A stretch of DNA of 47,835 nucleotides from an uncultured Collinsella sp. (lineage in GTDB: Bacteria > Actinomycetota > Coriobacteriia > Coriobacteriales > Coriobacteriaceae), in assembly GCA_902478865.1 (NCBI GenBank), contig CABSNA010000001.1:1-47835 (forward strand), read 5' to 3'. The notes under the pieces were generated by a model. The model saw only the letters and a program-made list of their open reading frames with translations. It did no database searches and had not been told where the DNA came from. The position numbers were made by a program, and so were the translations under genes. Positions within the stretch are counted from its first letter, which is position 1. The number at the start of each line of letters is the position of its first letter. Positions 12,644-47,200 of this stretch are shown piece after piece.

Positions 12644-12862
12644 CTACTCTGCAGACGAAGATCCACCATCAACGATTGCTTGCTCGGACTCAGGAATCCC
12701 ATCAGCACCCGTACTCTGTTCTTGCTCCACCTCTTCGCTGATTGCGGAGGCGGGGGTCGAGCCCTTTGCGCCCACGATGTAGGCAGCCCCAAATCCTAAC
12801 GCAATGGCAATCAAGGTCAAAATCACGTAGACAGGCCAATGGCGCTTAATATACGAAAACAC
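12644..12862 (-). CDS. Small single-pass membrane protein with acidic tail
   Basis: GTG start after AAGGAG; TM WPVYVILTLIAIALGFGAAYIV; directly downstream of the M28-like gene. Confidence 0.75.
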   Translation of the reverse strand: MFSYIKRHWPVYVILTLIAIALGFGAAYIVGAKGSTPASAISEEVEQEQSTGADGIPESEQAIVDGGSSSAE

Positions 12863-12883
12863 GTTGACTCCTTAGAGCTCCGT

Positions 12884-15800
12884 CTACGAACGGCGGATAA
12901 CCTCGGTCACGACCTCGGATACCGTAGCAATGTTCGTCGGGTTGACATTGTGGGGCAGGTCGTCCTCGGTACGAGCGCAAGCCAGACGCGTGCCGTCCAC
13001 GCCGACGATGGTAAGGGCTCGGCGGCTCGCCTCGAGCGCGGCATAGGCATCGGTCTTGGCATAGGGCATCTCGAGCGCGCCACAATCGACATGGAACGAC
13101 TTGCAGACCTTGCTGACCAGGTTCATGATGCGGCGATCGCCCTTGAGCAGTTGTTGTTCGCCCTCGACCGTCACAACCGAAAGCCTACCGGCGCCGACGG
13201 ATTCAAGATTGATAAAGAATACGCCGCGGAGCTTATCGCGATGCGAAGCCAAGAAGGCCTTCATGCCGGCGCCATCACAATCCGAGGCGCCCGTTGCCAC
13301 AAACCAGATATCGTGACCGAGCAGCTCATCATCGCCCATAGAGGCGACAGCCGAGAGCATATCTTCGGAAGAAGCGCCATCGGAAGACGTAGCGCCACCC
13401 TTCCAGCCATCGTTATCGTCCTCGAAGTTATCCCACGAACCGATACCGCGACCGGACTTCTTGGCATCGTAATCGTCTTCGACGCCCAGCCAGTCACTCA
13501 TGCTGTCCTGCTCGTTTTTCTTTTTACGGCCGAACAGACCACCCAGGCCGCGCTTACGAGACTTGGGTGCCGCCGGGGCGGGAGCTGGAATGGTCTCGAT
13601 CGGCTGCGCGCCCGGCGCAACGGGCATAGGAGGCGCAACGGGTGCCGATGTGGGTTCGGGACCTTGGGCGGTAGCAAAGGGGTCGTTGACCTGGGCAGAG
13701 GGATCGGGAAGGTCGAACAGCGACGTGCGAGACGCAACGTTTGCCTGCTTCATAGACGGCAGCGACGGATCGGGGACCGAAGCCAGCGGAGACGAGGAGG
13801 GTGCAGGCGCCGGTGCCGACGCCGGATCGGGAACATTCATCTGCGGACGCGGCGATGCCTGGGAGGAAATCTGGGCCATAAGGGAATCGACCGTTTCGTC
13901 CTGGGTGGGAGCGACATTGGCAACCGTGGCACCGGAACCACTCGGGGTCGGCATGGTGAAAATCTGCGTGGAATAAGGCCTCGACTCATCCGTCTCGGGA
14001 GTCTCGGAAACCGCAGGCACTTCCTCCTGCTCGACCTCGGTCGAATCACCTTGATCGGCTGCCACGTATTGCTCTTCGTCAGAGTTGACCTCAACGGACT
14101 CGTCCTCGGCGGCATCCTGAATTTCGGCAGCATCAATGGGCTCGTCATCGTCTGCCACGTCGTCCTGCTCATCGGAAGCAGGAAGGGGCTCGGCAATCGC
14201 GGTGCCTTGCTTTTCAAACGTTATCGTGGAATCGAACTGCGCGGCATCAAACGACATGGTGCTATCGACGTGCTGCTGGGCCTCGAAAGACGTTGTAGCT
14301 TCGGCGGCGTCGACGGGCGCGGACTGCATAGCCTCGTTCTGCTCGAACTCTTGCGCCGCGTGCTCACGTGCCGCCGCGGCTGCCTGCTGCTGAGCGATAG
14401 CCTCCTGCTCGGCAGCCTCGCGTGCGGCAGCGCGCTTCTCCTCGAAGTCGTCGACAAATTTCTTGCCCTTTGCAAGTGCACCCTTAAAGAAGTTGGAAGC
14501 GCTGGCGCCAATCGACGAGAACGCGGATGCAATGTCGGCATGGGGCGTTGCCGCGGGAATCTCGGCCGAGAAATCAGTATCGCTCTCGTAAGACACGCGC
14601 CTCGGCTGTTCAACGTAATCGTCGTCAGACTCGTCCGCAACGTCTTGTGCCGGCGCGGCGGGAGCCAAAATGTCCAGTCCTGCCGCGGGATCGATCGCGG
14701 ACACCGCCTCGGGCTCGGCAACGGCAGCGGCAACCGCGGCAGACTCATCATCCACGGTGACAGCGGGCGCAGGCGCAGTCACGACGGGGGCAGGCTCGGG
14801 CTCAAACGTCGGCTCCTCGCCCTCCTCGTAATCGAGCGTGCAGGACTCGGGAAGCATTCCGAGCGCACGGATGGCATCCGAACCAAAGCGGATGTTGCCG
14901 GCGGCATTGCGATAGAGCTTGGGCTCGGGCTCGGCCGCGACAGGCTCCTCCACCGGCTCGGCAGCGGAAACCTCGTCATTGAACTCTTCAGCCTGGACAG
15001 CCTGATTCTGATCCTCGGGCACGATGGCGCCAATCAGCGTCTCGTCGGCAGACGCACCCTCAAAGCCCTCGATCTGCTCGTCGAAAGCCTCACCCTGTTC
15101 GGGCTCGGTCTGAGCGTCGGGAACAATCGGCTGACCGAACTCGTCCTCGGCGTAGGTAGGCTCTTCATACTCGATGGTGTTGCCGTAGTCGTTTTGCTGC
15201 TGGGCCGCGGCATATTCCGCCGCTGCGCGCGCCATTTCCTCGGCACGACGCTTCTGCTCCCCAAAATAGGTATCGAACGGAACATCGTCGGGAAACTCGT
15301 TTTCGCCCTGGAAGGGAGCAACGTTGTCCATAACGCCGAGCATAGCGGCGACAGAAGACTTGTTGCACACCGCGCCGGACGTATAGGGAAGAATATGGCG
15401 GTTAGAGATGATGTTTGCCGCGTTGGCAAGTGCAACGAGGGAAGCGAGGATCGCGACAATCCACAGCAGAACCTTGAGCGCGCCGGGGAGCGGCAGGATA
15501 CGCAGGATGGCAACGGCAGCGGGGGCAACCGTGGCAACGGGCAACAGCTTGGCGATGAGCGCACGATACGAAGCATAAGGCTCGCGGGCGAGCAACTCAG
15601 CACGGGGAGAGTCGTAGTGTGCGACAACGACCACCGGGCGGTTACGCGGGGACGCGAGCGGGCCCGAGGCCTTGTGGTAGGCGATGACATTTTGGCTCAC
15701 GCCCGTCTTGCCCAGGCGCGAAACCACGGGGTGCCCTGTGCGTTCGAGCACGTAAAGAACGGCGCCGACAATGGCCAGCAAGGTGCCGACCAAGCCGATA

Positions 15801-16030
15801 CCGCCGCCGATGCCCATCAGCAGGGCGCCGGCAAACGCAAGAATACCGGTAACGGCAAATGCCAACCTACTGGGCGCCGGGGCATTGAACTCCTGAACCT
15901 CGGGGTCAAAGCCGTGGTTGCGGAAGATCTGAGCGATATCTTCGGCAGCCAAGCGCTCTTCTTCGCTGCATGCCGGCGTAATGCCGGTGTTCTGCAGCAG
16001 GTGGTTAATATAGTTCTGGGTGTTCGCCAT
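12884..16030 (-). CDS. Membrane M28 peptidase-like protein with very long acidic insertion, probably inactive
   Basis: NVIA, VVVVAHYDS, GAVCNKSSVA, IWFVATGASD, INLES; four TM segments. ATG at 16030 after GGAG; 1048 aa. Confidence 0.8.
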   Translation of the reverse strand: MANTQNYINHLLQNTGITPACSEEERLAAEDIAQIFRNHGFDPEVQEFNAPAPSRLAFAVTGILAFAGALLMGIGGGIGLVGTLLAIVGAVLYVLERTGHPVVSRLGKTGVSQNVIAYHKASGPLASPRNRPVVVVAHYDSPRAELLAREPYASYRALIAKLLPVATVAPAAVAILRILPLPGALKVLLWIVAILASLVALANAANIISNRHILPYTSGAVCNKSSVAAMLGVMDNVAPFQGENEFPDDVPFDTYFGEQKRRAEEMARAAAEYAAAQQQNDYGNTIEYEEPTYAEDEFGQPIVPDAQTEPEQGEAFDEQIEGFEGASADETLIGAIVPEDQNQAVQAEEFNDEVSAAEPVEEPVAAEPEPKLYRNAAGNIRFGSDAIRALGMLPESCTLDYEEGEEPTFEPEPAPVVTAPAPAVTVDDESAAVAAAVAEPEAVSAIDPAAGLDILAPAAPAQDVADESDDDYVEQPRRVSYESDTDFSAEIPAATPHADIASAFSSIGASASNFFKGALAKGKKFVDDFEEKRAAAREAAEQEAIAQQQAAAAAREHAAQEFEQNEAMQSAPVDAAEATTSFEAQQHVDSTMSFDAAQFDSTITFEKQGTAIAEPLPASDEQDDVADDDEPIDAAEIQDAAEDESVEVNSDEEQYVAADQGDSTEVEQEEVPAVSETPETDESRPYSTQIFTMPTPSGSGATVANVAPTQDETVDSLMAQISSQASPRPQMNVPDPASAPAPAPSSSPLASVPDPSLPSMKQANVASRTSLFDLPDPSAQVNDPFATAQGPEPTSAPVAPPMPVAPGAQPIETIPAPAPAAPKSRKRGLGGLFGRKKKNEQDSMSDWLGVEDDYDAKKSGRGIGSWDNFEDDNDGWKGGATSSDGASSEDMLSAVASMGDDELLGHDIWFVATGASDCDGAGMKAFLASHRDKLRGVFFINLESVGAGRLSVVTVEGEQQLLKGDRRIMNLVSKVCKSFHVDCGALEMPYAKTDAYAALEASRRALTIVGVDGTRLACARTEDDLPHNVNPTNIATVSEVVTEVIRRS

Positions 16031-16228
16031 GTGCGCTCCACATCCATAATCCGACAAATAGGCCCAATGCATGCACATTAGAACCGTATATAGTCGAAAG
16101 TATACCCCGAGCGAGCGCAAACGACCGAATTCGGGCCATCTTAACGCCCCGAGCGGACAAGGATATAGCCTAATCTCCATATCGGACTAAAATCATGGCA
16201 GCAAACCACCTTCTCATGCGAGGACTCT

Positions 16229-26885: not shown

Positions 26886-27656
26886 CTACTTCTTCTTGTG
26901 CGGGCGCGGCTTCTTCTCGCGACGAGTGACCTCAACCTGCAGCGGAGCGTTCTTAAGACGCTCCTCCTCATCGGCCTTCGCCTTGTCGATGACCTTCTGC
27001 GTCACAAAAATCTGCTGGATAACCTGCCAAGCAGACGAGACGTCGTAGTACAGCAGAACACCAACGGGAAGGCTCCAGCCCATCCAAAGCATCATGACCG
27101 TCATGACAACGGCCATCATACGCATGCTCTGAGCCTGCTGGCCGGTCTGGTTGCGCGACATATAGAGCTGCGGAATCAGGGTCAGGACGGCAAACAGGAT
27201 CAGGCAAACCAGCGCAGGCAGTGCAACCATAAAGCCATCGGCAAAGGAAGCGCTCGGCGTGGTGGTCAGGTCGGGCAGGATGTTGAAGAACGAGAACGTG
27301 CCGTCGTTAAAGTACTGCGGCAGGTTGCGCAGCAATGTAAACAGGGCGAACAAGATAGGCATCTGAATCAGCAGCGGCAGACAGCCAGCCATGGGGTTGA
27401 ACTTGTTCTCGCTGTAGAACTTCTGCATCTCCTCGGCCTGACGCTGGGGATCGTCGGCATAGCGCTCCTGGATCTCGAGCATCTTGGGCTGCAGCACCTG
27501 CATGCGAGCCGTCGACTTGGTCGACTTGAGCATAAGCGGCGTCAGCAGCAGACGGATGATGACCACCAGAATGATGATGGACAGGCCCCAGTCGACCGCA
27601 AAGGTCTGGATGAGCTTGAGCAGCTCGAAAAGGATGTTAACGATCCAATCCCACAT
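26886..27656 (-). CDS. yidC: Membrane protein insertase YidC/Oxa1
   Basis: WGLSIIILVVIIR..P, LQPK and NPMAGCLPLLIQMPI; conserved synteny. Confidence 0.96.
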   Translation of the reverse strand: MWDWIVNILFELLKLIQTFAVDWGLSIIILVVIIRLLLTPLMLKSTKSTARMQVLQPKMLEIQERYADDPQRQAEEMQKFYSENKFNPMAGCLPLLIQMPILFALFTLLRNLPQYFNDGTFSFFNILPDLTTTPSASFADGFMVALPALVCLILFAVLTLIPQLYMSRNQTGQQAQSMRMMAVVMTVMMLWMGWSLPVGVLLYYDVSSAWQVIQQIFVTQKVIDKAKADEEERLKNAPLQVEVTRREKKPRPHKKK

Positions 27657-27685
27657 GTAAGTTTTCCTCCGATAGCGAGTGCCCG

Positions 27686-27910
27686 CTAGGGCACAGGGTC
27701 ATAACCGCCGACGTGCAGGGGATTGCAGCGAGCGATGCGCCTCACGGCAAGCCAGCAGCCTCTCAAAACACCGTGCTTCTCAATCGCCTGGATGGCGTAT
27801 TGCGAGCACGTTGGATAATAAATGCAGGCGTCAGGCAATAAGGGCGAAATAACCTGTTGATATATGCGAATAGGAGCGATGGCAACACGTCGCAAAACGT
27901 GATTGCTCAT
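27686..27910 (-). CDS. yidD: Membrane protein insertion efficiency factor
   Basis: [31 protein letters not shown]. Confidence 0.96.
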
Positions 27911-28245
27911 CGCTCCTCCCCGGCAACGCCGGCGCGCTTCATAAGCGAACGCAACGCCTTGTCCATCTCCTGCGGTGAGGAAACCCTCGTCTTGGGAGTT
28001 GCAAACAAGATGATGTCATAACCCGCAACGGGAAATCCGCAGCTGCGGGCGGCCTCGCGCATCACACGCTTAGATCGGTTGCGCACGACGGCACAACCGA
28101 GTCGCTTAGCACCAACGAAGGCGACCCTTCCGGAGTCGCCTTCGCCAACCGATTCACATATGGTCATTCGAATCAGAGGGTGATTGAAACGACGCCCCTG
28201 ACTGAACACATGCTCGAAATCTTGCCGAGACTTAATAGTCTTCAT
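27907..28245 (-). CDS. rnpA: RNase P protein component
   Basis: RNR motif [18 protein letters not shown]; synteny with rpmH. Confidence 0.95.
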
Positions 28246-28265
28246 GCGAGATGTGTGTATCGCTG

Positions 28266-28400
28266 CTAGACAGTGAGACGCTTGCGGCCCTTGGCGCGAC
28301 GACGGGCGAGCACGGCACGACCACCCTTAGTGGCCATACGGGCACGGAAGCCATGGGTCTTGGCACGCTTACGCTTATTAGGCTGATACGTACGCTTCAT
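28266..28400 (-). CDS. rpmH: 50S ribosomal protein L34
   Basis: [25 protein letters not shown] at 28400 after AGGAGG. Confidence 0.98.
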
Positions 28401-28599
28401 CTTAAGTTCCTCCTGCTGCATTTCGAGTGTCCGCGGGGACGCGGACGCAGATATAGACACGTGAGCTTGAAGATTGTAGGGAAATCAATGTTCAAATGTC
28501 AAGAAATCAAAGGTAAAAGGTTGCGCAGTTCACACGGTTCCCCCATAAGCACAACCGAAATTTGCGCCTCATGGCAACCTTTCACGATATTTCATCGAG

Positions 28600-28733
28600 T
28601 TTTCAACAGGTCATGTTGGCAATGTTGAGAACTTTTCGCCCGTTTTCCAAAGTTTTCAACAGGTTTTGAAAAGTTGTCGAAAGATGAGAAACGTTGCACG
28701 GTGAGCTACTATTTGTTCGAAACCTTTTGAAAG
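28600..28733. promoter_or_regulatory. Cluster of DnaA-box-like 9-mers upstream of the GHKL gene/dnaA operon
   Basis: ttttcaaca (28600, 28653), tgttgagaa (28623), ttttccaaa (28643), ttttgaaaa (28664), tgtcgaaag (28675), tgttcgaaa (28714). Confidence 0.6.
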
Positions 28734-28745
28734 ATTGCGAGCGGC

Positions 28746-30098
28746 ATGTCTGACGACTTTTACACCATGGTCGATTCCGGAGACCCGGCACCCGACAACG
28801 AGCACATCACCGGCGTGCGCGAAGAGCGTGCGGAAGGCGAGCAGACGACCACGCAGGCGCCAAAAGCCATGTACGCCGCGCGCATCGCCGTCTATGACGA
28901 CATGCTGTCGACACCGCGGGTGATCGTCATTGATCCGCAAGATGTCCGCACGTATTTGGAAGAGACGACCAACACCGTCTACCAGTGCATGAAAGAACAA
29001 GGTGGCCACATCTCGCTCATGGTCATCCGCGAGATTGTCGAAAACTTTATCCACGCACACTTTGCCGAGCCCATCATCTCGATTCTGGACGGCGGAGACA
29101 CCATCCGCTTTGCTGACCAAGGACCCGGCATCGACGACAAGGAACGTGCTTTCGACTTTGGCGTTACCAGCGCAAACAGCAAGATGAAGCGCTATATCCG
29201 TGGAACCGGAGCAGGGTTTCCCATGGTGCAGGAGTATTTGGAAAACGCCGGCGGTGCCGTATCCATCGAGGACAACATGGGCAACGGCACCGTGGTTACG
29301 GTAAGCCTGAACCCTAAACGCGTGCAGGAAATCGAGCGTGCCGGCGGACGCGGCGCTGCCGTGCGGCCCGAGACGGAGCAGCCCACATATCCCCTGCCGG
29401 GAGCTTTTGCGCAGCAGCCCATGGCAACGCAGCAGATGCAGCCCCCCGTGGGACAGATGCAGCAGCCCGGAATGCCTCCTACACAAGAACCCCAAGCGGC
29501 ATCGATGTCGATGCCGCCAAGCATGCCAGAGGCCATGTCGCTGGCGGATCAGGATACAGCAGCAATGCAGCAGGCGACAGGGGCACCGGGTGGCCAGCAA
29601 ATGGGCTATCAGCCGTACCAACAGGGATATCCATATCAGCAGATGCCGCCACTGGGGTACGGCCAACCGTTCCCGCAGCAGTACCAGCAGGGATATCAGC
29701 AGCCGTACCAGCAGATGCCGCAGCAGCAGTACAACCCCTGGGCCCAGCAGATGCCTCCGCAGTCTTACCAACAGTGGCCTCAAAGTTTTCAACAGCAAAT
29801 GCCGCCGATGCAGAGTTCTCAACAACCAGCAGCTCAAATGATGTATCCTAATGCAGCAAATCAGTATGCGCAGCCACAACCGGACGTGTTCGTAAGCGAT
29901 CGCGGCAACGCCGCGCTGGGCTATCTGGCGCAAAATCAAGCGTGCGGCGCAACCGATCTTGCGAGGGCGTTTGGAAACTCGGCCCCCACTTGGTCACGCA
30001 CGCTCAATGACTTGGCGCAGGCCGGCTTGGTCATCAAGCATGGCCAGAAATACCATCTGACCGAACTCGGCGCCGCTCGCGTGCGAGCTCAGAGCTAA
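28746..30098 (+). CDS. GHKL (HATPase_c) ATP-binding protein with Q/P/Y-rich linker and C-terminal winged helix
   Basis: N-box REIVENFIHAH, G1 DQGPGI, G2 GTGAGF, G3 GNGTVVTV; C-terminal GATDLARAFGNSAPTWSRTLNDLAQAGLVIK..YHLTELG. Confidence 0.85.
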   Translation: MSDDFYTMVDSGDPAPDNEHITGVREERAEGEQTTTQAPKAMYAARIAVYDDMLSTPRVIVIDPQDVRTYLEETTNTVYQCMKEQGGHISLMVIREIVENFIHAHFAEPIISILDGGDTIRFADQGPGIDDKERAFDFGVTSANSKMKRYIRGTGAGFPMVQEYLENAGGAVSIEDNMGNGTVVTVSLNPKRVQEIERAGGRGAAVRPETEQPTYPLPGAFAQQPMATQQMQPPVGQMQQPGMPPTQEPQAASMSMPPSMPEAMSLADQDTAAMQQATGAPGGQQMGYQPYQQGYPYQQMPPLGYGQPFPQQYQQGYQQPYQQMPQQQYNPWAQQMPPQSYQQWPQSFQQQMPPMQSSQQPAAQMMYPNAANQYAQPQPDVFVSDRGNAALGYLAQNQACGATDLARAFGNSAPTWSRTLNDLAQAGLVIKHGQKYHLTELGAARVRAQS

Positions 30099-30113
30099 AG
30101 AACGGGAGAGACA

Positions 30114-31838
30114 GTGGACGAGGAAGCAAGCATCATCTTGGGGGATGCCATCGCCTTTTGCCAGCGCGACGGCCAAGATGCACGCCTCATCAACATGCTG
30201 GGGCAATCGCGCGCCATAAGCCTGACCGAAGATACGCTCACGATCGAGGCCCCCTCGCGCTTTGCCATCGCGCAGCTCAAAAAGCATCAGCCGACTATTG
30301 AGGCTTATCTGGAAGAAATCGCCTTTGCACCGATTGCGCTCGACATCGTGGCGCCGCAAGGCGCCGCGACGGAATCCGCTGCCGCGACGGCGCCCGCCAC
30401 GGCTCCCGCTGCTTCCCCGACGGTACCAGCCTCCGCAAGCGACGTGCCGACAATCGAGCACCAGCACAGCGATGTTTCCCGTGAAACCATGGCACCGTTG
30501 CCGGCCGCGGCGGCGACGTCAACGAACGCACCCGTCACGCACATGCCCATCGCTCACGACGCAGCGGCGGGCGCGGATTCGGGCATTGCAATCAAGAACA
30601 CGCTCTCGGCCGATGATTTTCGTCGCATGATGAACCAGATGAAGGGCGGAGCGCCGACTAAATCCACGCAAGCTGCGACCCCCGCCTCACCCATGCCAGC
30701 ACCGACCGTGCCGGCCGAGCAGAATACGGATGGAGCCCCACTCGCCGCGAACTCAAAATTCACCTTTGAGAACTTTGTCTACGGCCCCGAGAACAGCCAT
30801 GCCTATCGCTCGGCCCTCAAGTTTGCCGCACTCGCGGACGAGCGCGGCACATGCACATCACTGTTCATCTACGGCAAATCGGGCCTGGGCAAGACGCACC
30901 TGCTGCTTGCCATCAAAAACGAGCTCGCCGAGAAGTCGCCCGAGATCAAGGTCAAGTATGCCAACTCCCAGGCATATCTGGACGACCTGATGACCGAGTT
31001 CGACCGTCAAAAGAAGAGCAACGCCCCCATCATGCAGGCGTACCACGGCGTGGACGTGCTCATCATCGATGACATCCAAAACATCATCGGCAAGCGCGCG
31101 AGCGTGGACTACTTCTTCCAGCTCATGGACGAGTTCATCCGCAACAACAAGAAGGTCGTCATCGCGGCAGACCGCGCCCCCAAGGACCTGAGCATGGACG
31201 AGCGTCTGACCAGCCGCTTCAACGCCGGCATGCTCTGCCTGGTCGCAGAGCCAAGCTACGAGATGAAATACAAGATCTTGCAGCGCTATTACGAGAACAC
31301 CATCGTCGCCGCTCCCGAGGCGGGCGACGACTCGCTGCTGGCGGCCTATGGGGGCGACGGCGGGCACCTGACCGACGAACACTTTAAACACATGGCCGAG
31401 GTCTCGGGCACCAACATCCGCGAACTCGAGAGCTTTTGCGAGCGCTGCGCCGGCGAGGCGGGCGACCGCGAGCGCGAGGGCGGAGAGCTCACCTTTGACG
31501 ATATCGACGCCATCGCCAGCCAGTACTTCGACACATCGGCCAAAAAGATCAACGTCCAGACGGTTCAGTCCGTCATCGAAGAGCAGTACGGCGTGACACA
31601 CGAGGAGCTCATCGGCCCGCGTCGCAACGCCAATATCGCCAAAGCACGCCATATCGCTATCTACCTGGCCATCGAGATGTGCGAAATGACGACCACGGCG
31701 GTGGGCGCCGAATTTGGCAACCGCAACCATTCGACCGTCAGCACGAGCTACAAAAAGGTCCAGAAGATGATCCAGGAAGACCGCACCGTCACCGAAGACC
31801 TCAAGTCGCTGCGCGATAAAATTACACTGCGCTCGTAG
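30114..31838 (+). CDS. dnaA: Chromosomal replication initiator DnaA (long domain II)
   Basis: FTFENFV, Walker A GKSGLGKT, Walker B IIDDIQ, RLTSRF, NIRELE, domain IV ARHIAIYL..RNHSTV. Confidence 0.97.
   Translation: MDEEASIILGDAIAFCQRDGQDARLINMLGQSRAISLTEDTLTIEAPSRFAIAQLKKHQPTIEAYLEEIAFAPIALDIVAPQGAATESAAATAPATAPAASPTVPASASDVPTIEHQHSDVSRETMAPLPAAAATSTNAPVTHMPIAHDAAAGADSGIAIKNTLSADDFRRMMNQMKGGAPTKSTQAATPASPMPAPTVPAEQNTDGAPLAANSKFTFENFVYGPENSHAYRSALKFAALADERGTCTSLFIYGKSGLGKTHLLLAIKNELAEKSPEIKVKYANSQAYLDDLMTEFDRQKKSNAPIMQAYHGVDVLIIDDIQNIIGKRASVDYFFQLMDEFIRNNKKVVIAADRAPKDLSMDERLTSRFNAGMLCLVAEPSYEMKYKILQRYYENTIVAAPEAGDDSLLAAYGGDGGHLTDEHFKHMAEVSGTNIRELESFCERCAGEAGDREREGGELTFDDIDAIASQYFDTSAKKINVQTVQSVIEEQYGVTHEELIGPRRNANIAKARHIAIYLAIEMCEMTTTAVGAEFGNRNHSTVSTSYKKVQKMIQEDRTVTEDLKSLRDKITLRS
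30473..30488. other. parS-like site inside dnaA
   Basis: tgtttcccgtgaaacc, 2 mismatches to consensus; encodes DVSRET. Confidence 0.6.
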
Positions 31839-32076
31839 GGAAATAGAGACACCTGTTGAAAACTTGTCGAAACCACGGGCATAAGGTGTCTAAAACCCAA
31901 CCCGCGGTGATGAAAAGTTTTGCGCAGGTTTTGAACGTGGAAAACCGCCCCCGTTGCACACAGGTTGCTGTCGATTCTCTTTCTGGGTCTGACCTGCGTC
32001 TTTGGGAGTAATCAACAGTTTCGTCAGTGCTATTACTATTATTAAGATATTTATATCTATAGAAAGGTATTAAAAG
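31839..32076. other. oriC unwinding region between dnaA and dnaN
   Basis: Box-like 9-mers tgttgaaaa (31854), tgtctaaaa (31887), tgatgaaaa (31908), cgtggaaaa (31936), taatcaaca (32009); DnaA-trio-like CTA TTA CTA TTA TTA (32030-32044); AT-rich tract to about 32075. Confidence 0.88.
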
Positions 32077-33180
32077 ATGAAGTTCACCGTCAGCCAGAGC
32101 TCGCTTACACAAGCCATCGGCGTCGTTATGAAGGGCGTCGCTTCGGCATCCACCCTTCCCATCCTGTCGGGCGTGCTCGTCAAGGCGCAAGACGGCATCT
32201 TGGAATTCCAGACCTCTAACTACACCATCTCGATCCGTCATCGCATCGCGGCGCATGTCGAAGAAGAGGGCGAGATGGTTATCCCCTGTAAGATGCTCTC
32301 CAATATCACCAAGACCCTCCCCGATGCCCCGGTCACCTTTGAGCTGTCCGAGCGCCAGGTGCTGATTGGTTGCGAGAAGAGCTCGTTCCGCCTGAACACG
32401 CTCGATGCCAATGACTTCCCCGAGTTTCCGGCCTATGCCATCGAGAGTGCTGTGGAGCTGCCGACCGATATCTTGTCCGAAATGGTCGGCCGCGTGTGGC
32501 GCGTCACCTCGACCGACAAGGCCCGCCCCATCCTGGGTGGCGTGCACATGAAGGTCGAGAACAACACCGTGCGCCTGGTGGCGACCGATTCCTTCCGCTT
32601 GGCCGTGTGCGATACGCAGGTTGAGACCTCGACCCTCGAAGGTTCCTTTGAGCTCAACGTTCCGGCCGACGCCTTCAACGACGCGCTGAACATCATGGCC
32701 AGCCAGGCGACCATCATGATCGGGGCTACCGACACCCAGGTCGTCTTTGAGGCCGGCAACACCACCTACGTGTCGCGCCGCATCGAGGGCGTGTACCCCA
32801 ACTACAAGCAGCTCATCCCCGATTCGTGCGTGACGAGCGTCAAGATCGACGTCGCCGCCTTTAACGCCGCCCTCAAGCGCGTGGCCGTTATCGCGAGCGC
32901 CAACCCCGCCGTCAAGTTCGAGATCGATGTCGAGAACGGGCAGATGGGCCTGTCCTCCATTTCCAATGACCAGGACCTTGCGCAAGAGACGATCGATGTC
33001 GAGGCCGAGGGCGAGTCGGGTACCATCGCCTTCAACTACCACTACATCTTCGGCTGCCTCAATGCCCTGTCCAAGGAGAAGGAGATCACGCTGGAGCTCA
33101 AGAGCTACTCGCAGGCGGGCATCTTCAAGTCCTACGACAAGATCAACTACCTGTACCTGGTCATGCCGGTCCGCATCTAG
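32077..33180 (+). CDS. dnaN: DNA polymerase III beta clamp
   Basis: LPILSGV, DFPEFP, RPILGGV, VATDSFRLA, YPNY and LVMPVR. Confidence 0.97.
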   Translation: MKFTVSQSSLTQAIGVVMKGVASASTLPILSGVLVKAQDGILEFQTSNYTISIRHRIAAHVEEEGEMVIPCKMLSNITKTLPDAPVTFELSERQVLIGCEKSSFRLNTLDANDFPEFPAYAIESAVELPTDILSEMVGRVWRVTSTDKARPILGGVHMKVENNTVRLVATDSFRLAVCDTQVETSTLEGSFELNVPADAFNDALNIMASQATIMIGATDTQVVFEAGNTTYVSRRIEGVYPNYKQLIPDSCVTSVKIDVAAFNAALKRVAVIASANPAVKFEIDVENGQMGLSSISNDQDLAQETIDVEAEGESGTIAFNYHYIFGCLNALSKEKEITLELKSYSQAGIFKSYDKINYLYLVMPVRI

Positions 33181-33189
33181 CGCTGCGCC

Positions 33190-34296
33190 ATGACCATGTT
33201 CGCCCGCGATCTTTCCGTCGCGCACTACCGCAGCTTCGATAGCTATCGTCTTGCCCTGGACGAGGGCGTGACGATACTTGCGGGACCCAACGCGGCGGGA
33301 AAGACCAATCTCATAGAGGCGCTGCAGCTGCTGACGAGCGGCGCCTCGTTTAGGCATCCGACCGCAGCCGAGCTCGTCCATGACGGCGTGGGCTCGTGCA
33401 AGGTCGAGCTGAGGCTCGAGGGCGACGGCCGCGTGCTTGATATGGGATTGAGCGCGGAGGACGGTAAGCGCTCGTTTAGCCGCAACGGCAAGAGATGCTC
33501 TGCCGCCGGTGTGCGCGGGGTTCTGCCGAGCGTGCTGTTTTGCCCCGACCATCTGGACATGGTTAAGCGGGGCGCCAGTGTGCGCCGCGCCGCCCTCGAT
33601 GACTTTGGCATGCAACTGAGCGCACGCTATGCCGATCTTGCGAGCACCTATGGGCGCTGCGTGACCCAGCGCAACGCCTTGCTCAAGGAAACCTGGTGCT
33701 GCCGTGAGATGCTCGGCGCGTGGAACGATTCGATTGCCCGCGCGGGCGCGGCTCTGCTCGTGCACCGGTTGGCCCTGCTCGACCGGCTGGCGGGCCATGT
33801 GCACACTGCCTACGGGCAAGTGGCATCCGGTGAGGCTGCCAACGTGACCTATACGTCCACGCTGGGGGATTTGCCCCAGGTCGAGGATCGCGAAGAGCTT
33901 AAGGGCTGGGCGTACGAGCGCATGCTGGCTGCCCTTGATGAGCACGCCGACGAGGAAATTCGCCGCGGCGTGACGTTGGTGGGACCGCATCGCGACGAGA
34001 TTGAGTTTACCGTGGCGGGTCGCTCCGCCCGTTCATTTGCCAGCCAAGGTCAGCAGCGAACGTTGGTTCTGGCCTGGAAGGTGGCGGAGGTGGCCGTGGC
34101 TCGCGATGTCTTGGGCACCGCCCCACTGCTGCTTTTGGATGACGTGATGAGCGAACTCGACGGCGAACGCCGCGGTGCTTTCCTGCGGCTGATCGGCGAT
34201 GATATCCAGACGGTCATAACCACGACCAACCTGGGGTACTTTACCGATGACCTGCTTGATCGAGCCAAGGTGGTGAGCATGGGTGAGACGTGCTAA
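33190..34296 (+). CDS. recF: DNA replication/repair protein RecF
   Basis: GPNAAGKTN, GPHRDE, SQGQQR and LLLDDVMSELD. Confidence 0.97.
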   Translation: MTMFARDLSVAHYRSFDSYRLALDEGVTILAGPNAAGKTNLIEALQLLTSGASFRHPTAAELVHDGVGSCKVELRLEGDGRVLDMGLSAEDGKRSFSRNGKRCSAAGVRGVLPSVLFCPDHLDMVKRGASVRRAALDDFGMQLSARYADLASTYGRCVTQRNALLKETWCCREMLGAWNDSIARAGAALLVHRLALLDRLAGHVHTAYGQVASGEAANVTYTSTLGDLPQVEDREELKGWAYERMLAALDEHADEEIRRGVTLVGPHRDEIEFTVAGRSARSFASQGQQRTLVLAWKVAEVAVARDVLGTAPLLLLDDVMSELDGERRGAFLRLIGDDIQTVITTTNLGYFTDDLLDRAKVVSMGETC

Positions 34297-34846
34297 TTAC
34301 GAGCGCGAGAGCGAGACAGTCGCCTTCAGTGGGTTTTTGAACGCAGAGCGCCAGCGCATCCTGGCGGCCGCAACGCCTAAGCGCCGTGCGCAGATGGAGG
34401 CTGCCGAGGAGTCGCGCGCGATCTATCGCGCGTGGAACGCGGTGTGCTCGGGCACGCGCGAGGGGCGGCATGTGACGGGCCTGCGCTACCTGCCCGAGTC
34501 CAATGAGCTGCTGGTATATCTCGATTCGCCCTCGTGGACGCAGGAAATGACGCTGTTGCGTGAGATCATCCGCGCGCGCATGGAGCGCGCCGGTGCGCAT
34601 GTGGACGGCCTGGTGTTCAAAACCACCGCACCCGGTCACACGCCGCCCGCCGCCAAGGAGCGCCTGCGCCCGGCGACGACCGAGCGCCCGCCGGCCCCGT
34701 ACGCCGACCTAAGCGAGGCCGAGCGCACCGAGATTGAGCGCCAAGTGGCACCCATCGAAGACCAAAAACTGCGCGAGGCCCTCGAGAATGCCATGAGAGC
34801 CAGTGCCGAGTGGGCCAAGGGCGTGCAAAGCAAAAAAGAGCCTTAA
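34283..34846 (+). CDS. DciA/DUF721 family protein (helicase-loading associated)
   Basis: Lies between recF and gyrB; W..ELLVYLDSPSWTQEM resembles the DUF721 core. Confidence 0.75.
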   Translation: MRRANYERESETVAFSGFLNAERQRILAAATPKRRAQMEAAEESRAIYRAWNAVCSGTREGRHVTGLRYLPESNELLVYLDSPSWTQEMTLLREIIRARMERAGAHVDGLVFKTTAPGHTPPAAKERLRPATTERPPAPYADLSEAERTEIERQVAPIEDQKLREALENAMRASAEWAKGVQSKKEP

Positions 34847-40035: not shown

Positions 40036-40112
40036 GGACCTGTAGCTCAGTTGGTTAGAGCGTCCGGCTGATAACCGGGAGGTCACAAGTTCGAATCTTG
40101 TCAGGTCCACCA
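40036..40112 (+). tRNA. tRNA-Ile (GAT)
   Basis: 77-nt cloverleaf, anticodon arm CCGG-CTGATAA-CCGG, CCA end. Confidence 0.98.
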
Positions 40113-40179
40113 CTTTCTTTCGCAATAAACACCCCAGCGAGAGCCGAGTCGCCGCTGGGGTGTTTATTACTGTCTCCGT

Positions 40180-40255
40180 GGGGGTTTAGCTCAGCTGGGA
40201 GAGCGCGGGCTTTGCAAGCCTGAGGTCAGGGGTTCGATCCCCCTAACCTCCACCA
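40180..40255 (+). tRNA. tRNA-Ala (TGC)
   Basis: 76 nt, acceptor GGGGGTT/AACCTCC with G3:U70, anticodon loop TT-TGC-AA, CCA end. Confidence 0.98.
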
Positions 40256-40259
40256 TGAT

Positions 40260-40336
40260 GGACCTGTAGCTCAGTTGGTTAGAGCGTCCGGCTGATAACC
40301 GGGAGGTCACAAGTTCGAATCTTGTCAGGTCCACCA
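40260..40336 (+). tRNA. tRNA-Ile (GAT), second identical copy
   Basis: Identical to 40036-40112. Confidence 0.98.
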
Positions 40337-41385: not shown

Positions 41386-41415
41386 CGACGCCAGACTCGA
41401 TGGGAAGGTCTAAAG

Positions 41416-41865
41416 ATGGCACAGGATATGCAGGACGCCGGTAACGTCTCCGCCGAGCTCGACGCCATGGTGTGCGATCTGATCGGCGCGTTCTTGGACG
41501 ACCTTGCCGCCGGTGAAAACCCTGGCGTAGTTGTGGCGATTGAGGACGCTGCTTCCAACCGATATCTGGCGGCGCTTGACGAGGACGGCGAAGAGGCGTG
41601 CCTCGAGGCGGCCACCAACTTTATCTCCGAGCACAAGATGGGTCTTAAGGACGAGGGCCTGGGCCGTATCGCCCGCTATGCCATCGGCTACACCGGCTGC
41701 GTCGAGATTGACGGCGGCTATCACGATGCTCTGCTCGTGAGCTTCTTCGAAACCACGCTCGAGAGTGGTTTTTCGGCATATGTGCTGTATGAGGGCATGG
41801 GCGCCGGCGATGGTTTTATGTGGAGCGACCCTGAACCTGCAGGTGAGGAAACCCCTCTCATCTAA
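41416..41865 (+). CDS. Acidic hypothetical protein
   Basis: 149-aa ORF with GGAAGG RBS and host-like GC-rich codons; no family recognised. Confidence 0.75.
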   Translation: MAQDMQDAGNVSAELDAMVCDLIGAFLDDLAAGENPGVVVAIEDAASNRYLAALDEDGEEACLEAATNFISEHKMGLKDEGLGRIARYAIGYTGCVEIDGGYHDALLVSFFETTLESGFSAYVLYEGMGAGDGFMWSDPEPAGEETPLI

Positions 41866-41982
41866 AATCGCTAAAATAAACGAGTTTTCGGTAAAAGGCT
41901 CAATATTCCCGCTGAGCGTTGTATCGCTGGGCGGGCCGCATACGCGTGCCGGTTGTATATAGATAGAAGATAGGGGAACTAC

Positions 41983-43821
41983 ATGCGCGTAGACAATCTG
42001 AGGAACATCGCCATCATCGCTCACGTCGACCACGGCAAGACGACGATGGTCGACAAGCTCCTGCGTGCCACGGACGCCTTCCGTGCCAACCAGCAGGTCG
42101 AGGACCGCGTCCTGGATTCCAACGACCAGGAGCGCGAGCGCGGCATTACGATTCTCGCCAAGAACATCTCTATCGAGTACAAGGACGTCAAGATCAACGT
42201 CATCGACACCCCGGGCCACGCCGACTTTGGCGGCGAGGTCGAGCGCGTGCTGCGTATGGCCGACGGCGCCCTGCTGCTGGTCGACGCTTTTGAGGGCCCC
42301 ATGCCCCAGACCCGCTTCGTGCTGCGTCACGCTATCGACACCGGCCTTAAGATCATGATCGTAATCAACAAGATCGACCGTCCGGGTGCCAACCCCGAGA
42401 AGGCCTACAACGACTGCCTCGACCTTATGGCCGACCTGGGCGCTACCGACGACCAGCTTGAGTTCGCCATGGAGCACGTGGTCTACGCCAGCGCCATGAA
42501 TGGCTTTGCCCGCCTTGACCCCAACGACGGCAACATGGACATGTATCCGCTGCTCGATATGATCATCGACGACATGCCCGCGCCCGAGGTTGACGAGAAC
42601 GCCCCGCTGGCCATGCAGTGCGTGACCATCGACCACTCCAACTTTGTCGGCCGCATCGGTATCGGTCGCGTGTACTCCGGCGCCATTCACCAGGGCGACC
42701 AGATCCTGGTTGTGAAGAACGACGGCTCCAGCGCCACCGCTACCGTCAAACAGCTCTTTACCTTCGACTACCTGGGCCGCACCGAGTGCCAGGAAGTCGG
42801 CGCCGGCGACATCGCCGCTGTCGTGGGCATTGACCGCACCGATATCGGCGATGTCTACACCGATCCCGAGAACCCCGTCGAGCTCGAGCCCATCGAGATC
42901 GACCCGCCGACCCTGTCCATCGTCTTTGAGGCTTCGACCTCCCCGCTCGTCGGTCGCGACGGCGACATCGTGGGCGCCCGTCAGCTCAAGGAGCGCCTGT
43001 TCAACGAGGCCGAGAACAACGTGACCATGAAGATCGAGGAGCTCGAGGACAAGAGCGGCGTCGAGGTCTCGGGCCGCGGCATCCTGCACCTGTCCGTCCT
43101 GATGGAGTCCATGCGCCGCGAGGGCTTTGAGTTCCAGGTCGGCCGTCCCCGCGTTCTGTTTAAGAAGGACGAGAACGGCAACAAGATGGAGCCTGTCGAG
43201 CAGGCCGTCGTCGAGTGCCCGGACGAGTACTCGGGCAAGGTCGTTGAGGTCTTCGGTACCTCCGGCGGCATCATGACGAGCATGGATACCTCGGGCATCG
43301 TGACGCACCTTGAGTTTAAGATCCCGACGCGTGGCATCATGGGCCTTAAGAACCGCATCATGAACGTCACCCACGGCGAAGGCGTGTTCTACCACACCTT
43401 CCTGGAGTATGGTCCTTACGCCGGCGAGATCGGCAACCGTCAGAACGGCGCCATGATTTCCATGACCACCGAGAAGGCCGTTGCCTACGCTCTGGGTACG
43501 CTGCAGGAGCGCGGTCAGCTGTTTGTTGAGCCGGGCACCGAATGCTATGAGGGCATGATCGTGGGCGAGCGTAGCAAGGCTGGCGACATGGTCGTCAACA
43601 TCGCGCGTACCAAGAACCTGGGCAACCAGCGTTCCTCGACCTCCGATATCTCCGTCCAGCTGGTGCCGCCCCGCACCTTCTCGCTGGAGGAGGCGCTGGA
43701 GTACATCGCCGACGACGAGCTGGTCGAGATTACTCCCAAGAACATCCGCTTGCGCAAGCGTCTGCTCAACGCCACCGACCGCAAGAAGGCTGCTGTCCGC
43801 GCCGGTCAGGTCAACAAATAA
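41983..43821 (+). CDS. typA: Translational GTPase TypA/BipA
   Basis: [41 protein letters not shown] and [14 protein letters not shown]. Confidence 0.97.
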
Positions 43822-43848
43822 GCGCTGGGCTTTATAGCGAGTAACAAG

Positions 43849-43883
43849 AAAGGGCGTCGACCATCGCGGTCGGCGCCCTTTTT
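43849..43883 (+). terminator. Terminator after typA
   Basis: Stem aaagggcgtcgacc / ggtcggcgcccttt followed by a T run. Confidence 0.88.
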
Positions 43884-44244
43884 GGTGCAAGGGGACAGGT
43901 TACTTTGCACCACAGCGGGGGGGCGTTATCCCCCGAGCGGCTTTCGGGTCAAAGTTAAGTTGTTTAAACATATACATAATTCGATAGAATATAACTGCTT
44001 TAATGCAAAACCGTTAACAGGTAAATATCAACTGGTATTAAATTAAAAGACCTCTTGACCTGCGGTTTACATGATTGGTATCTATATTATATTTTATGCA
44101 TTGTGGTATAGACGAACCGTCTTAGAAGTTGCCCCCAATGGGTTCTTGCAATGCGCTAGGTAGGTTCTCGTGGATGTTGGGGTTTGTGTTCGATCCGACG
44201 ATTCGCCGTATTCCACACCGTGTTGTAGGAATTAGGGGACAACT

Positions 44245-47200
44245 ATGGACGCACACCGCTCACAGTCGCTGGGTATGGCGGCCCTGGTCTTTATTTTAAT
44301 TAGCCTCACCGCCGCCGTTTTTCACGGTGTAGCCCCCGTGCGCGCCGAGGATGTGAGCACACCAACGCCGATTGTGATTGATGGGAAGACGGCGACGGTT
44401 GATGTCAGGCTGTATACCGATGAGAACCATACTCAAGAGCTCAAGGATCCTGTAACGTCCACTTCGACGCTCTATGGAGCTTTCTTGGCACAATTCAAAA
44501 GCGGTAAGGCGCCTTCGCCCGAGAACTATATCGCTGTCTATGAGCTACCCGACACCATCGTCGTTGATGAAAACGCGGGTGGCAACCTCATGGAGGGTCC
44601 GGAAGCTTCTGCTGCCCAAGCTGGCACGTGGAAGATCGAGGGCAATAAGGTTGTCTTTACGTTTGACAAGGCGTGGCTCGCAAAAAACCCTGCGAATATC
44701 CATGTCGCGGCAAACTTCTCGTTCCAGCTTTCAAACAAAGACATCGGCGCCGGCGGCAATGTGTCTGTCGAGTTTCCTGGCAAGGGATCGATAAATATTC
44801 CCATCAAGGACGGTAGGGTTACGAATAAGAGGAAGTCGGGGGTTTTCTCTCAGGGTCCCGATGGCGTGGCCAAAGTCACCTGGACCGTTGAGCTCACAGT
44901 CGAGTCGTATGTCACGAACGTCAAGTTCACTGATACGCTGGGTGATAACTTTAGCTTTGTGGAGCGCAGCTTTAAGCTCGATAACAAGACGATTGGATCG
45001 CAGCCAAAAATCGAAGGCCAGACCGCGACCATCGAGAACTTAGGCAGTCTTCCCCAGGGTGTCCATACGATTACGTATGAAACCAAGCTGAAGAGCGGTA
45101 TCTCCGTGGATAACGGAGAGTTCATCAACGGCCAGGAAGCCTCAAAGAACATGGCGTCGTGGGAGTGGGGCGGTGCCAACGATCGTCAGAACGGCACGGT
45201 TACGGCTGCCCCCAGCCCCTTTCGTTACGACATGATTGGCAAGTCTAGCGACCGCAATAGCACGCCGTCCGACATCACATGGACCGTCACGCTCAACCAA
45301 GGCGAGCTCAAGGCCGACATGAGCGGCTACGTGTTCACCGATAATCTGGACGATAAGCAGACGTATACGGGGGCTATACGGTTTATAAGGGCAGCTCGGG
45401 TTTGGAGGTCCTCAAGGAGGGCGAGCTCGATTCGTCGCAGAGCTCCTTTACCTACAAGTTTCCGACTGACCTTGAGGATAAGTACATCACCTATCGCATT
45501 GTTTATCACACCAAGATGAATGAAACGGGTTCGTATGACACCGTGCGCAACAGCGCAACGATCGAGCACGATGGTTCCGTTTCCGGCACTGGTAAAGGTG
45601 AGTTTACGCCGCAGTTGGTGGGCACACCGATCACCAAGGAACTCGTGGGTCGAGAGAATGCTGCAACAACTGGCGAGGCGAAGTGGAAGACGCGCGTGGC
45701 ACTGAAAGCTATCGTCAATGCGGCCAACCTTGATAAGGTGACGGTGAAGGACACGTTTCAATCAGCGTGGAAACAAGATATCGGCGTTGATGTCAACTCA
45801 ATAAAGATCAAGATTGGTGAAACTGAGCTAGTTCGAGGCGACGACTGGAAGCTGACGACAAATGAGCTGAAAGATGGAAATAACGTTGTGCAGAAGGATG
45901 GGCACAAAAGAAACTTCAACCTCGACATAAACATTAACGACAAGGTGAAGGCGGCTCTCGCGAACGAGGATTACGCCGACATCACGTACACCACCACTTC
46001 TGATGCGCTGCCGGGCTGGTACTCGAACTTCGCATCTGTTACGGTGCCGGGGCAGAATGGCGGTTGGCCGTACTACACCGATAGCCCAATGTATGTCGTC
46101 AACAAGGAAACGACGCCCGCGGTCGAGAAGCCAGAAGCGGAGTCGAAGGTAACTTGGAACGAGGACTTCGACTGGAGTGCCGTTGACGGCTCGAACGAGA
46201 AGGGAGCCTGGGTCGTCGACTGGACGGTGTACGCGAATCGCCAGAAGACCGCGGCAGGAGATTGTTATGGAGCTGGAAAGCTCGGCCGCGTACCGCTGAA
46301 CATCATCGATACCATTCCGGACGGGATGAGCTATGTCGCGGGTTCCGCAAAGTACACGATTGTGCAGAACCCCTACGATCTACATGCGGGGCTTGGGCGC
46401 GGAGGCGAGGCCAAGGAGGTCGTTACGGGTCAGACGCTTGCCGCCAGCAACATCATCACCAACGGCAACACGGTCACCTTCTCCATTCCCACGACGGAAC
46501 TCGGCGACTACGCCGGTTACGCCAAGCTTACGTACCAGACGGCGGTCAAGCGCAGCGAGCTCGACACATCCACGAACGAGGTGAAGTTCACCAATTCTGC
46601 GCGCGCCGAGTCGGGAAGCAAGAAATTCGACTCTGGCAGTGGTGCTGTCACCATTAAGAACAACGTTATCAAGAAGACCGGCGAACAGGTCGACAATAGC
46701 AATCGCATCAAGTACACCATTTTCGTTAACGAGTCAGCTGTCGATCTTGAGAGTGGCACTGGTGTCCTCGAGCTGGTCGATACCATGGATGCCAAGTGCA
46801 CGTTGGTGCCGTCGACGCTTAAGGTCTATGAGCGCGTGAACAACGATTGGTCTGAACTGGCCGATAAGGATTATTCGTCAGAGATGGAACAGGTCAACAA
46901 CGAGTCTGGCTCATGTACGAGATTGACACTTAACGTGCCCGATGAGAAATACCTCAAGGTCGAGTACGAGGTCATCCCGAGCGGAAATCCTGGCAACAAG
47001 GTTCCTCTTTCCAATACCGCCATGCTTACAGGTGTGAAGGACGGTTCTGCGACTGATGATCAAACATGGGAAATTAAAAAAGCTTCTGCCAGCGCGGGTG
47101 GCAACGGTTACGGCATCACGATGGCCAAGTACGACGCCCAGCAGGTTGGAGCGACGCTCAAGGGTGCGGAGTTTACGCTCTACAGCGTGAATATGGACCA

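Follow-up and report, generated by a model that had tools for sequence, protein, structure and literature searches.

Only for a few model bacteria is it known in detail how DnaA is controlled, and its known regulators are specific to particular lineages. The origin-binding regulators of initiation include CtrA, MtrA, HP1021, Spo0A and AdpA, and the modulators of DnaA include YabA, SirA, Hda, DiaA and HobA. Among the proteins of the GHKL fold, SpoIIAB and RsbW are modules of about 150 amino acids (aa) that lack the DHp domain of histidine kinases and act on a protein partner, and MutL consists of an N-terminal ATPase, a long disordered linker and a C-terminal domain. The interval between rpmH and dnaA is among the most conserved gene junctions of bacteria. 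We observed that, in an uncultured Collinsella sp. (GenBank assembly GCA_902478865.1, contig CABSNA010000001.1, positions 1 to 47,835 of the forward strand; hereinafter, the window denotes this entire stretch of 47,835 nucleotides), this interval is occupied by a gene encoding a 450-aa protein that combines a histidine kinase-type ATP-binding domain, a long disordered linker and a C-terminal winged helix-turn-helix (wHTH) domain. Collinsella, like other Coriobacteriia, is abundant in the human gut, and no published description of origin control in Coriobacteriia was found. The position of the gene is what makes a role in replication control plausible. The gene and the predicted parts of its product are the following.

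28746..30098, plus strand: the gene (P0001), coding for the 450-aa protein with a histidine kinase-type ATPase, a disordered linker and a wHTH (open reading frame (ORF) call)
28758..28772, plus strand: N-terminal aromatic motif, residues 5-9, FYTMV in the window protein and FYPFV in most of clade 1 of the family tree described below
28878..29354, plus strand: compact Bergerat (GHKL) ATP-binding domain of the histidine kinase catalytic ATP-binding (CA) type, residues about 45-203
29355..29897, plus strand: disordered low-complexity linker, residues about 204-384 (~180 aa), from the AlphaFold2 model and composition
29898..30092, plus strand: C-terminal wHTH, residues 385-449, from Pfam, a profile search of PDB and the AlphaFold2 model

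The ORF opens at the first in-frame start codon past a stop. When the window was aligned with 80 loci from relatives (81 distinct sequences), the numbers of polymorphic sites at codon positions 1, 2 and 3 were 7, 3 and 47 in the ATPase domain, 10, 4 and 36 in the wHTH, 36, 38 and 70 in the linker, and 5, 7 and 14 in the first 40 residues. Because polymorphism is concentrated at the third codon positions, the gene is under purifying selection, which is strong on both folded domains; the linker is coding but relaxed. The possibility that this ORF is not a gene was rejected on the strength of this codon-position pattern together with the confident predicted folds.

The ATP-binding domain is readily recognizable. 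The Pfam HATPase_c model matches residues 93-189 (E 9.4e-11, 42.6 bits against a curated cut-off of 26.4) as well as each of the 72 sequences in the family alignment, in which the residues of the ATP site are invariant or nearly so (E96, E99, N100 and H103; D124, G126 and G128; G153, G155 and G157; G181 and T185). With the N box, G1 (DxGxG), G2 (GxGxG) and G3 all present, the domain is predicted to adopt a complete GHKL/Bergerat fold, and the candidate explanation that it is a degenerate pseudokinase was rejected given the invariance of the ATP-site residues. In an AlphaFold2 model built on the 72 family sequences, the predicted local distance difference test score (pLDDT, quoted for this model as means over 10-residue blocks) is 79-98 over residues 41-200, with strands at 45-49, 58-62, 110-114, 119-123, 171-176 and 182-187 and helices at 67-84, 91-103, 145-148, 158-167 and 190-202. 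The model of a short family member, P0259 (255 aa), reached a mean pLDDT of 92.6 and a predicted template modeling score (pTM) of 0.77.

The DHp domain with an acceptor histidine that a two-component sensor kinase has beside its CA domain was not found in this protein. Ahead of the CA core, the AlphaFold2 model has two strands and no helical hairpin, and no invariant histidine precedes residue 103. The Pfam scan of the protein, for which all 10 matches to E 0.1 were listed, contained no HisKA/DHp, sensor or other domain beyond HATPase_c and the wHTH families. The NCBIfam matches (the best 25 of 43 to E 1) involve many sensor kinases, only by their catalytic ends and in every case far under the cut-off, and neither among these nor in Pfam was there a HisKA-type match beyond the CA part. 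A transmembrane segment is lacking as well, because the maximum Kyte-Doolittle mean over 19 residues is 1.0.

The linker is dominated by a few amino acids (27% Q, 18% P, 11% A and 9% M over residues 193-380), and its pLDDT is 40-50 over about residues 211-370. It is followed by a domain that, in the model, comprises helices at 385-397, 402-409, 413-425 and 440-449 and strands at 429-432 and 435-438, with a pLDDT of 94-98 over residues 381-450. Pfam matches to residues 385-444 include HVO_A0261_N (E 1.3e-7), MarR_2 and HTH_IclR, and we assign no single wHTH family because all these matches fall below the curated cut-offs here; the profile search of PDB matched MntR, Csa3 and AdcR/MarR-type proteins (E 1e-5 to 1e-4). 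The combination of a three-helix bundle, a beta-hairpin wing and the profile matches identifies this domain, as modeled, as a wHTH of the MarR/IclR/TrmB-like type. The protein thus has, in all these respects, the architecture described in a first-pass annotation of the DNA, which had noted intact N, G1, G2 and G3 boxes, no DHp, transmembrane or sensor region, a low-complexity linker and a C-terminal wHTH.

This architecture defines a sizeable protein family. A phmmer search with residues 1-205 against 1.84 billion cluster representatives (clusters at 50% identity) returned 1120 matches at E<=1e-3, with 253 clusters at E<=1e-30 and approximately 50% identity over residues 40-192. Among the 149 representatives that we listed, the window's own cluster being left out, the ATPase domain is near-full in 137, of which 115 also carry the wHTH; many of the near-full representatives that lack it end in out-of-frame-looking tails. 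The linker varies across the family from 7 to 351 aa (pooled composition 15% A, 15% P, 14% Q, 11% G and 7% Y), and its length varies even among 120 close relatives (81-97% identity), which are 404-474 aa long. A maximum-likelihood tree computed rapidly for the ATPase domain (116 rows, after those without the wHTH or a near-full domain were dropped) consists of two deep clades, with a Shimodaira-Hasegawa-like approximate likelihood ratio test (SH-aLRT) support of 99 on each side. Clade 1 (64 rows) includes the window protein. In 56 of its rows, the motif M-x-x-x-F-Y-P-F-V-(D/E) occupies the very N-terminus, and an acidic spacer, from about 15 to more than 200 aa long, lies between it and the ATPase domain. 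Clade 2 (52 rows) is devoid of this motif and has [FY]-D-Y-x-[FY]-V 5-6 residues ahead of the strand ARIAVYDD; in the P0259 model, this aromatic segment is predicted with moderate confidence, and one of its residues forms a beta-bridge. The consensus of the recognition helix also differs between the two clades.

A more general form of the N-terminal motif, [FYW][YFIW]P[FMLY][VLIM], precedes the GHKL domain in 67 of the 137 near-full representatives, and 69 of all representatives have the start of the aromatic motif among their first 16 residues. Among the 120 close relatives, 117 start with MS[DN]DFYTMVDSGDPAPDN, FYTMV being the variant of the Collinsella aerofaciens group. Judging by this conservation, the aromatic N-terminal element is a family-wide feature; it could belong to the fold, be exchanged as a strap or serve as a docking peptide, and in the AlphaFold2 model residues 1-40 are undocked (pLDDT 47-66). 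This motif, as well as the second cluster of box-like repeats with its AT-rich stretch described below, are additions to the first-pass annotation.

In the few Atlas members that have a record, Actinomycetota is the commonest phylum for the nearest clusters. The earlier description of the gene as lineage-specific has to be qualified for a family of this size and depth. The plasmid collection contained ordinary histidine kinases only (4 records) and no family member, and the phage collection gave no family match; this absence from both collections fits a chromosomal housekeeping role. PADLOC reported only a weak similarity of the wHTH to Csa3/CasR and hence no sign of a defense system. There is no whole-protein model of the family in Pfam or NCBIfam, and no description of it was found in the full-text literature, which likewise yielded no characterized protein of this architecture, in line with the statement of the first-pass annotation that it knew of no such regulator.

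The locus around the gene includes the following features.

28266..28400, minus strand: rpmH (ribosomal protein L34), the divergent upstream neighbor (Pfam Ribosomal_L34, E 3e-24)
28590..28740, no strand assigned: upstream DnaA-box-like repeat cluster with the core TTTTCAACA, including GTTTTCAAAA in 4.1 copies at 28642-28683
29783..29795, plus strand: exact copy of the 13-mer AAGTTTTCAACAG in the linker-coding region, from the repeat comparison
30099..30113, plus strand: gene-dnaA junction of 15 nt (AGAACGGGAGAGACA), separating the TAA stop from the dnaA GTG
30114..31838, plus strand: dnaA, 574 aa, GTG start at 30114 (Pfam Bac_DnaA, E 1e-41; Bac_DnaA_C, E 8e-21)
31850..32076, no strand assigned: part of the dnaA-dnaN spacer with a second box-like cluster (31850-31945) followed by an AT-rich stretch (32011-32076)
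32077..33180, plus strand: dnaN, downstream of dnaA

By the gene order established with the Pfam scan, this is a classical chromosomal origin region, with parB-parA-rsmG-jag/KhpB-yidC-yidD-rnpA-rpmH on the minus strand and the gene in question followed by dnaA-dnaN-recF-DciA(DUF721)-gyrB-gyrA on the plus strand. The DciA/DUF721-family gene (34283-34846, plus strand) comes after recF and overlaps its end, as is typical of DciA-using bacteria. The 450-aa gene fills the interval between rpmH and dnaA and ends 15 nt ahead of the dnaA start, with no terminator-like site on the plus strand in a consensus scan of 28200-32200; the position, the spacing and the lack of a terminator had been noted in the first-pass annotation. 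The annotated start of dnaA is about right because TIGR00362, which matches DnaA residues 26-570, aligns its profile position 18 with residue 26. A Shine-Dalgarno-like GGGAGAG (30104-30110) lies five nt ahead of the dnaA GTG, and the gene and dnaA are in the same reading frame. The sole promoter-like site found by the same scan is on the minus strand (28502..28473) and is positioned to serve rpmH, which codes for a 44-aa product identical in all 80 loci. The spacer between rpmH and the gene is 345 bp long (28401-28745; GC content 0.45). Rfam gave no match in 27500-32500 at E<=0.1.

A scan of genome contigs matched 531 relatives, of which the best 80 loci, all from the C. aerofaciens complex, were analyzed. 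The order rpmH-gene-dnaA is present in each of these 80 loci, with dnaN too wherever the contig extends that far; the proteins are 96-100% identical to that of the window, so the 80 loci count as one observation. One of them (L069, CAVEDI010000055.1), titled 'Oscillospiraceae bacterium', reproduces the entire rpmH-gene-dnaA-dnaN region at 98% identity and is most likely a Collinsella contig mis-binned into an Oscillospiraceae genome. A comparison of the N-terminal extensions of 19 homologs with peptides antisense to rpmH gave a best E of only 0.55, and no Pfam domain was found in the N-terminal extensions of homologs.

The gene-dnaA pair is flanked by repeats on both sides. The region 28401-28745 contains 11 sites within 2 mismatches of TTTTCAACA; at this threshold, the density of such 9-mers is 31.9 per kb there and 29.4 per kb in 31839-32076, compared to 2.5 per kb in the whole window, an approximately 12-fold enrichment. 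Similarly, the 11-mer GTTTTCAACAG has 17 matches at up to 2 mismatches, a number that was reached in 0 of 100 shuffles. The cluster of DnaA-box-like sites upstream of the gene that had been reported in the first-pass annotation is therefore real as a cluster of repeats, but the canonical boxes TTATCCACA and TTGTCCACA are not enriched at up to 1 mismatch. Within the upstream cluster, GTTTTCAAAA is repeated about 4 times at 28642-28683 with a period of 10-11 bp, that is, one helical turn (Tandem Repeats Finder period 10); this phased stretch includes a 7-bp inverted repeat, TTTTCAA-N6-TTGAAAA (28653-28672). The 15-mer AAGTTTTCAACAGGT at 28650-28664 has a perfect inverted copy at 31851-31865, past dnaA. 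A copy of AAGTTTTCAACAG, a 13-mer of the upstream repeats, also lies inside the gene, in a segment (29781-29796) that is invariant in the 81 sequences as compared to 25% variable positions in the linker, and there is an inverted copy of AAGTTTTCAACAG with one mismatch in the ATPase-coding part (29036-29048). The exact internal copy could be a chance occurrence or a candidate binding site ~320 bp before dnaA.

The spacer between dnaA and dnaN (31839-32076) has a GC content of 0.43, which drops to 0.24 in the stretch 32011-32076 just before dnaN. It includes a (TAN)5 run at 32031-32045, and TATTACTATTATTAA stands beside the box-like TAATCAACA (32009). By analogy with known origins, this AT-rich element is probably the unwinding core of oriC. 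To take the repeats for DnaA boxes would be a reasonable reading of the sequence; the wHTH of the gene product is the alternative predicted binder.

How might such a protein function? Conceivably, it is a soluble, DNA-tethered, ATP-binding regulator, in which the C-terminal wHTH would bind DNA and the flexible linker of ~180 aa would join it to the compact ATP-binding domain. Since this domain has its nucleotide site complete and comes without a phospho-acceptor module, it would be either an ATP-dependent switch or a kinase that acts on a partner protein. Because the gene sits between the box-like repeats and dnaA, 15 nt upstream of the latter, it would most likely be made from the same transcript as DnaA and so under the same control, and its most likely role would be in modulating dnaA expression or origin activity. 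We tentatively favor, as a substantial possibility that falls somewhat short of being probable, a DNA-tethered, ATP-dependent regulator that is made together with DnaA and acts on dnaA expression or origin function. The gene, its domains, the selection on it, its family and its position are established by the analysis; shared transcription with dnaA, the DNA target, the use of ATP and an effect on replication are inferred.

Several observations weigh against this interpretation. Adjacency to dnaA is seen in a single species complex, that of the 80 nearly identical loci. The repeat core departs from the canonical DnaA box (TTWTNCACA) at one core position. The scan of 28200-32200 found no sigma-70-type promoter on the plus strand for the gene or dnaA, either upstream or internal; despite this null result, dnaA may have a promoter of its own inside the gene, and the null promoter scan speaks neither for nor against co-transcription. 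In P0233, a 286-aa representative, the family ATPase domain is joined to the C-terminal part of a PD-(D/E)XK (AddA/AddB-like) nuclease; this protein may be a chimera created by the assembly, or it may indicate that the gene neighborhood differs in that lineage. Finally, and with little weight either way, a GHKL-DnaA fusion protein was absent among the 111 matches from a search of longer proteins with P0259, and a search of longer proteins with the family alignment had none at E<=1e-10 among those of 971-2770 aa.

The protein may instead be an ATP-responsive transcription factor or nucleoid-associated protein of an ordinary kind, with its targets elsewhere and no role in initiation, such that its place before dnaA is an accident or reflects expression coupled to growth rate. 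In favor of this explanation, the wHTH is of a generic MarR/IclR/TrmB type, synteny is seen in one species complex, the different recognition-helix consensus sequences of the two deep clades suggest different DNA targets, and the protein matches none of the families of known initiation regulators (Pfam to E 0.1; NCBIfam, the best 25 of 43 matches). We nevertheless consider this explanation rather unlikely: an insertion that is under purifying selection at a junction usually so highly conserved is unusual, the 15-nt junction lacks a terminator-like site, and the same 13-mer repeat occurs upstream of the gene, inside it and past dnaA.

A far more ambitious version of the regulator made together with DnaA would be an initiation factor common to the class Coriobacteriia and co-transcribed with dnaA, in which a DNA-tethered GHKL module reads cellular ATP, and which would use the wHTH, at the phased origin repeats, and the aromatic peptide to phosphorylate or sequester DnaA or the clamp, or else to clamp origin DNA, thus coupling the energy state of the cell to initiation. 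This scenario strikes us as improbable in its full form. No known initiation regulator was seen in the window proteins scanned, a scan that covered those proteins only, and the group may lack such regulators. Adjacency to dnaA throughout the class would raise the interest of the gene, and confinement to Collinsella would lower it. If the DnaA-linked regulator that we favor is real, it would be a directly testable candidate, and a family that has several hundred sequence clusters and no name would gain a function. Even without a role in replication, the acceptor-less histidine kinase catalytic domain joined by a prion-like linker to a wHTH amounts to an uncharacterized signaling architecture.

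The window contains several other features of note. A canonical two-component pair consists of a WalK/MtrB-like sensor kinase (2945-4510, minus strand) and a response regulator (4522-5244, minus strand) whose best NCBIfam match is MtrA, at 240 bits, under the cut-off of 300; MtrA binds oriC in mycobacteria. Neither Pfam nor NCBIfam gave a match at E<=1e-5 for two long ORFs, 41410-43890 (minus strand, 825 aa) and 12839-16081 (plus strand, 1080 aa), and the reality of the second is uncertain given that an equally long ORF overlaps it on the opposite strand. Surface proteins are encoded at 9146-12577 (plus strand; 1143 aa, with SpaA repeats and a thioester (TED) domain) and at 44245-45519 (plus strand; with an isopeptide-forming fimbrial domain). 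A cluster of tRNA-Ile(gat), tRNA-Ala(tgc) and tRNA-Ile(gat) genes (40036-40336, plus strand) lies by itself after gyrA, and the window has no rRNA genes.

To judge from profiles and the predicted fold, the nearest relatives of the ATP-binding domain are the catalytic domains of ordinary histidine kinases. The profile and fold comparisons that the first-pass annotation had proposed place the ATPase among the kinase CA domains and, by the PDB profile search, the wHTH with MntR, Csa3 and MarR-type proteins. The top Foldseek matches are the catalytic domains of HK853, EnvZ, CpxA, WalK and CheA (E about 1e-5), and further matches include the serine kinases BCKDK and PDK; a sequence search of PDB chains found HK853 at E 1e-3, and hhalign with the WalK/MtrB-like kinase of the window gave 97% probability over 137 columns, that is, the whole CA domain. 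With HK853, EnvZ, CpxA and WalK, it shares the Bergerat fold, the G1, G2 and G3 glycine motifs and an ATP lid of the same length. Unlike histidine kinases, the gene product is devoid of DHp/HisKA, the acceptor histidine and any sensor or membrane part, has two extra N-terminal strands (ARIAVYDD, PRV..I), and has its CA-type domain fused to a wHTH rather than partnered by a response regulator. In addition, hhalign shows that the family lacks an insertion of ~15 residues that the window kinase has between the first helix and the N-box helix.

A DNA-tethered serine kinase or partner-switching factor of the SpoIIAB/RsbW type, which would sequester or phosphorylate a sigma factor, a STAS protein or DnaA, might account for the compact, DHp-less ATPase of ~150 aa that, as the alignment gaps indicate, is free of the hairpin insertion of canonical CA domains. 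The motif I pattern E-x-x-x-N is also shared with SpoIIAB/RsbW, the GHKL serine kinases returned by Foldseek are compatible with such an activity, and a cluster with HATPase_c_2 appears among the Atlas feature matches, at rank 11 (score 0.93), the sole support for this profile. However, the likeness to SpoIIAB/RsbW that had been raised in the first-pass annotation is not borne out by the profiles, as HATPase_c_2 is matched by 0 of the 72 family members at E<=0.01. The top 50 Foldseek matches include neither a SpoIIAB nor an RsbW structure, the Pfam scan of 24 window ORFs found no STAS, PP2C or sigma-factor family, and, unlike these kinases, the gene product has a wHTH and a long linker, so we regard this explanation as very improbable.

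The other mechanism to be weighed is that of an ATP-gated clamp or bridge on DNA, similar to MutL, MORC or GyrB, where ATP would dimerize the N-terminal domains, the aromatic motif would be an exchanged strap, and the linkers with the pair of wHTH domains would enclose or bridge DNA near the origin. The layout, with a GHKL domain, a long disordered linker and a C-terminal domain for DNA binding or dimerization, resembles that of MutL, and the aromatic motif is kept across the family at a variable distance from the ATPase. The E-I-V-E-N pattern (E96-I-V-E-N100) resembles motif I of MutL, and the PDB profile search included a weak match to the MutL N-terminus (E 4e-3). As in GyrB, a motif I glutamate is found four residues before the Mg-binding asparagine, and E96 and N100 pair with the Glu and Asn of the window GyrB in the hhalign comparison, but the register of this motif is ambiguous, given that the kinase alignment shifts the helix by three residues. 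The similarity to GHL ATPases (MutL, GyrB, MORC, Hsp90) is far weaker than that to kinases at the level of both profile (11.5% probability over 43 columns with GyrB as against the kinase value given above) and fold, no GHL ATPase being among the top 50 Foldseek matches, which are kinase CA domains and BCKDK/PDK. The S5-fold transducer of GHL proteins was not found in the AlphaFold2 model, where the ATPase is followed by one helix (190-202) and then disorder, and the N-terminal residues that would form the strap are undocked. Taken together, these findings make an ATP-gated clamp a doubtful proposition.

Among solved structures, the closest one with both domains in the same order, according to the model, is DIP2311 of Corynebacterium diphtheriae (PDB 3LMM), the best Foldseek match of P0259 (E 2e-6, 258 columns, query template modeling score (TMq) 0.48). 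In DIP2311, which is also actinobacterial, a GHKL-like domain is followed by a wHTH, and the alignment spans the whole of P0259. DIP2311 differs in its size (556 aa), with a large extra N-terminal part, in its sequence (identity of 11-15%) and in a different domain arrangement (root mean square deviation of about 14.6 Å). None of the 72 family members matches AlbA_2 or HATPase_c_4, which we take to be the Pfam model covering DIP2311-type proteins, and none of them has an equivalent N-terminal domain. DIP2311 is a structural-genomics protein, and the relevant part of a 2021 article gives its function as unknown (PMC8780604).

The proposal of a DNA-tethered, ATP-dependent regulator made together with DnaA also invites comparison with the known regulators of initiation. 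Set beside them by description, the gene product would share with them the proposed action at or near oriC or dnaA. To our knowledge, none of the origin binders (CtrA, MtrA, HP1021, Spo0A, AdpA) or DnaA modulators (YabA, SirA, Hda, DiaA, HobA) has a GHKL domain or precedes dnaA as a cistron. The GHKL module and the wHTH of the Collinsella protein are each of a known kind, and here the two are newly combined in a conspicuous place.

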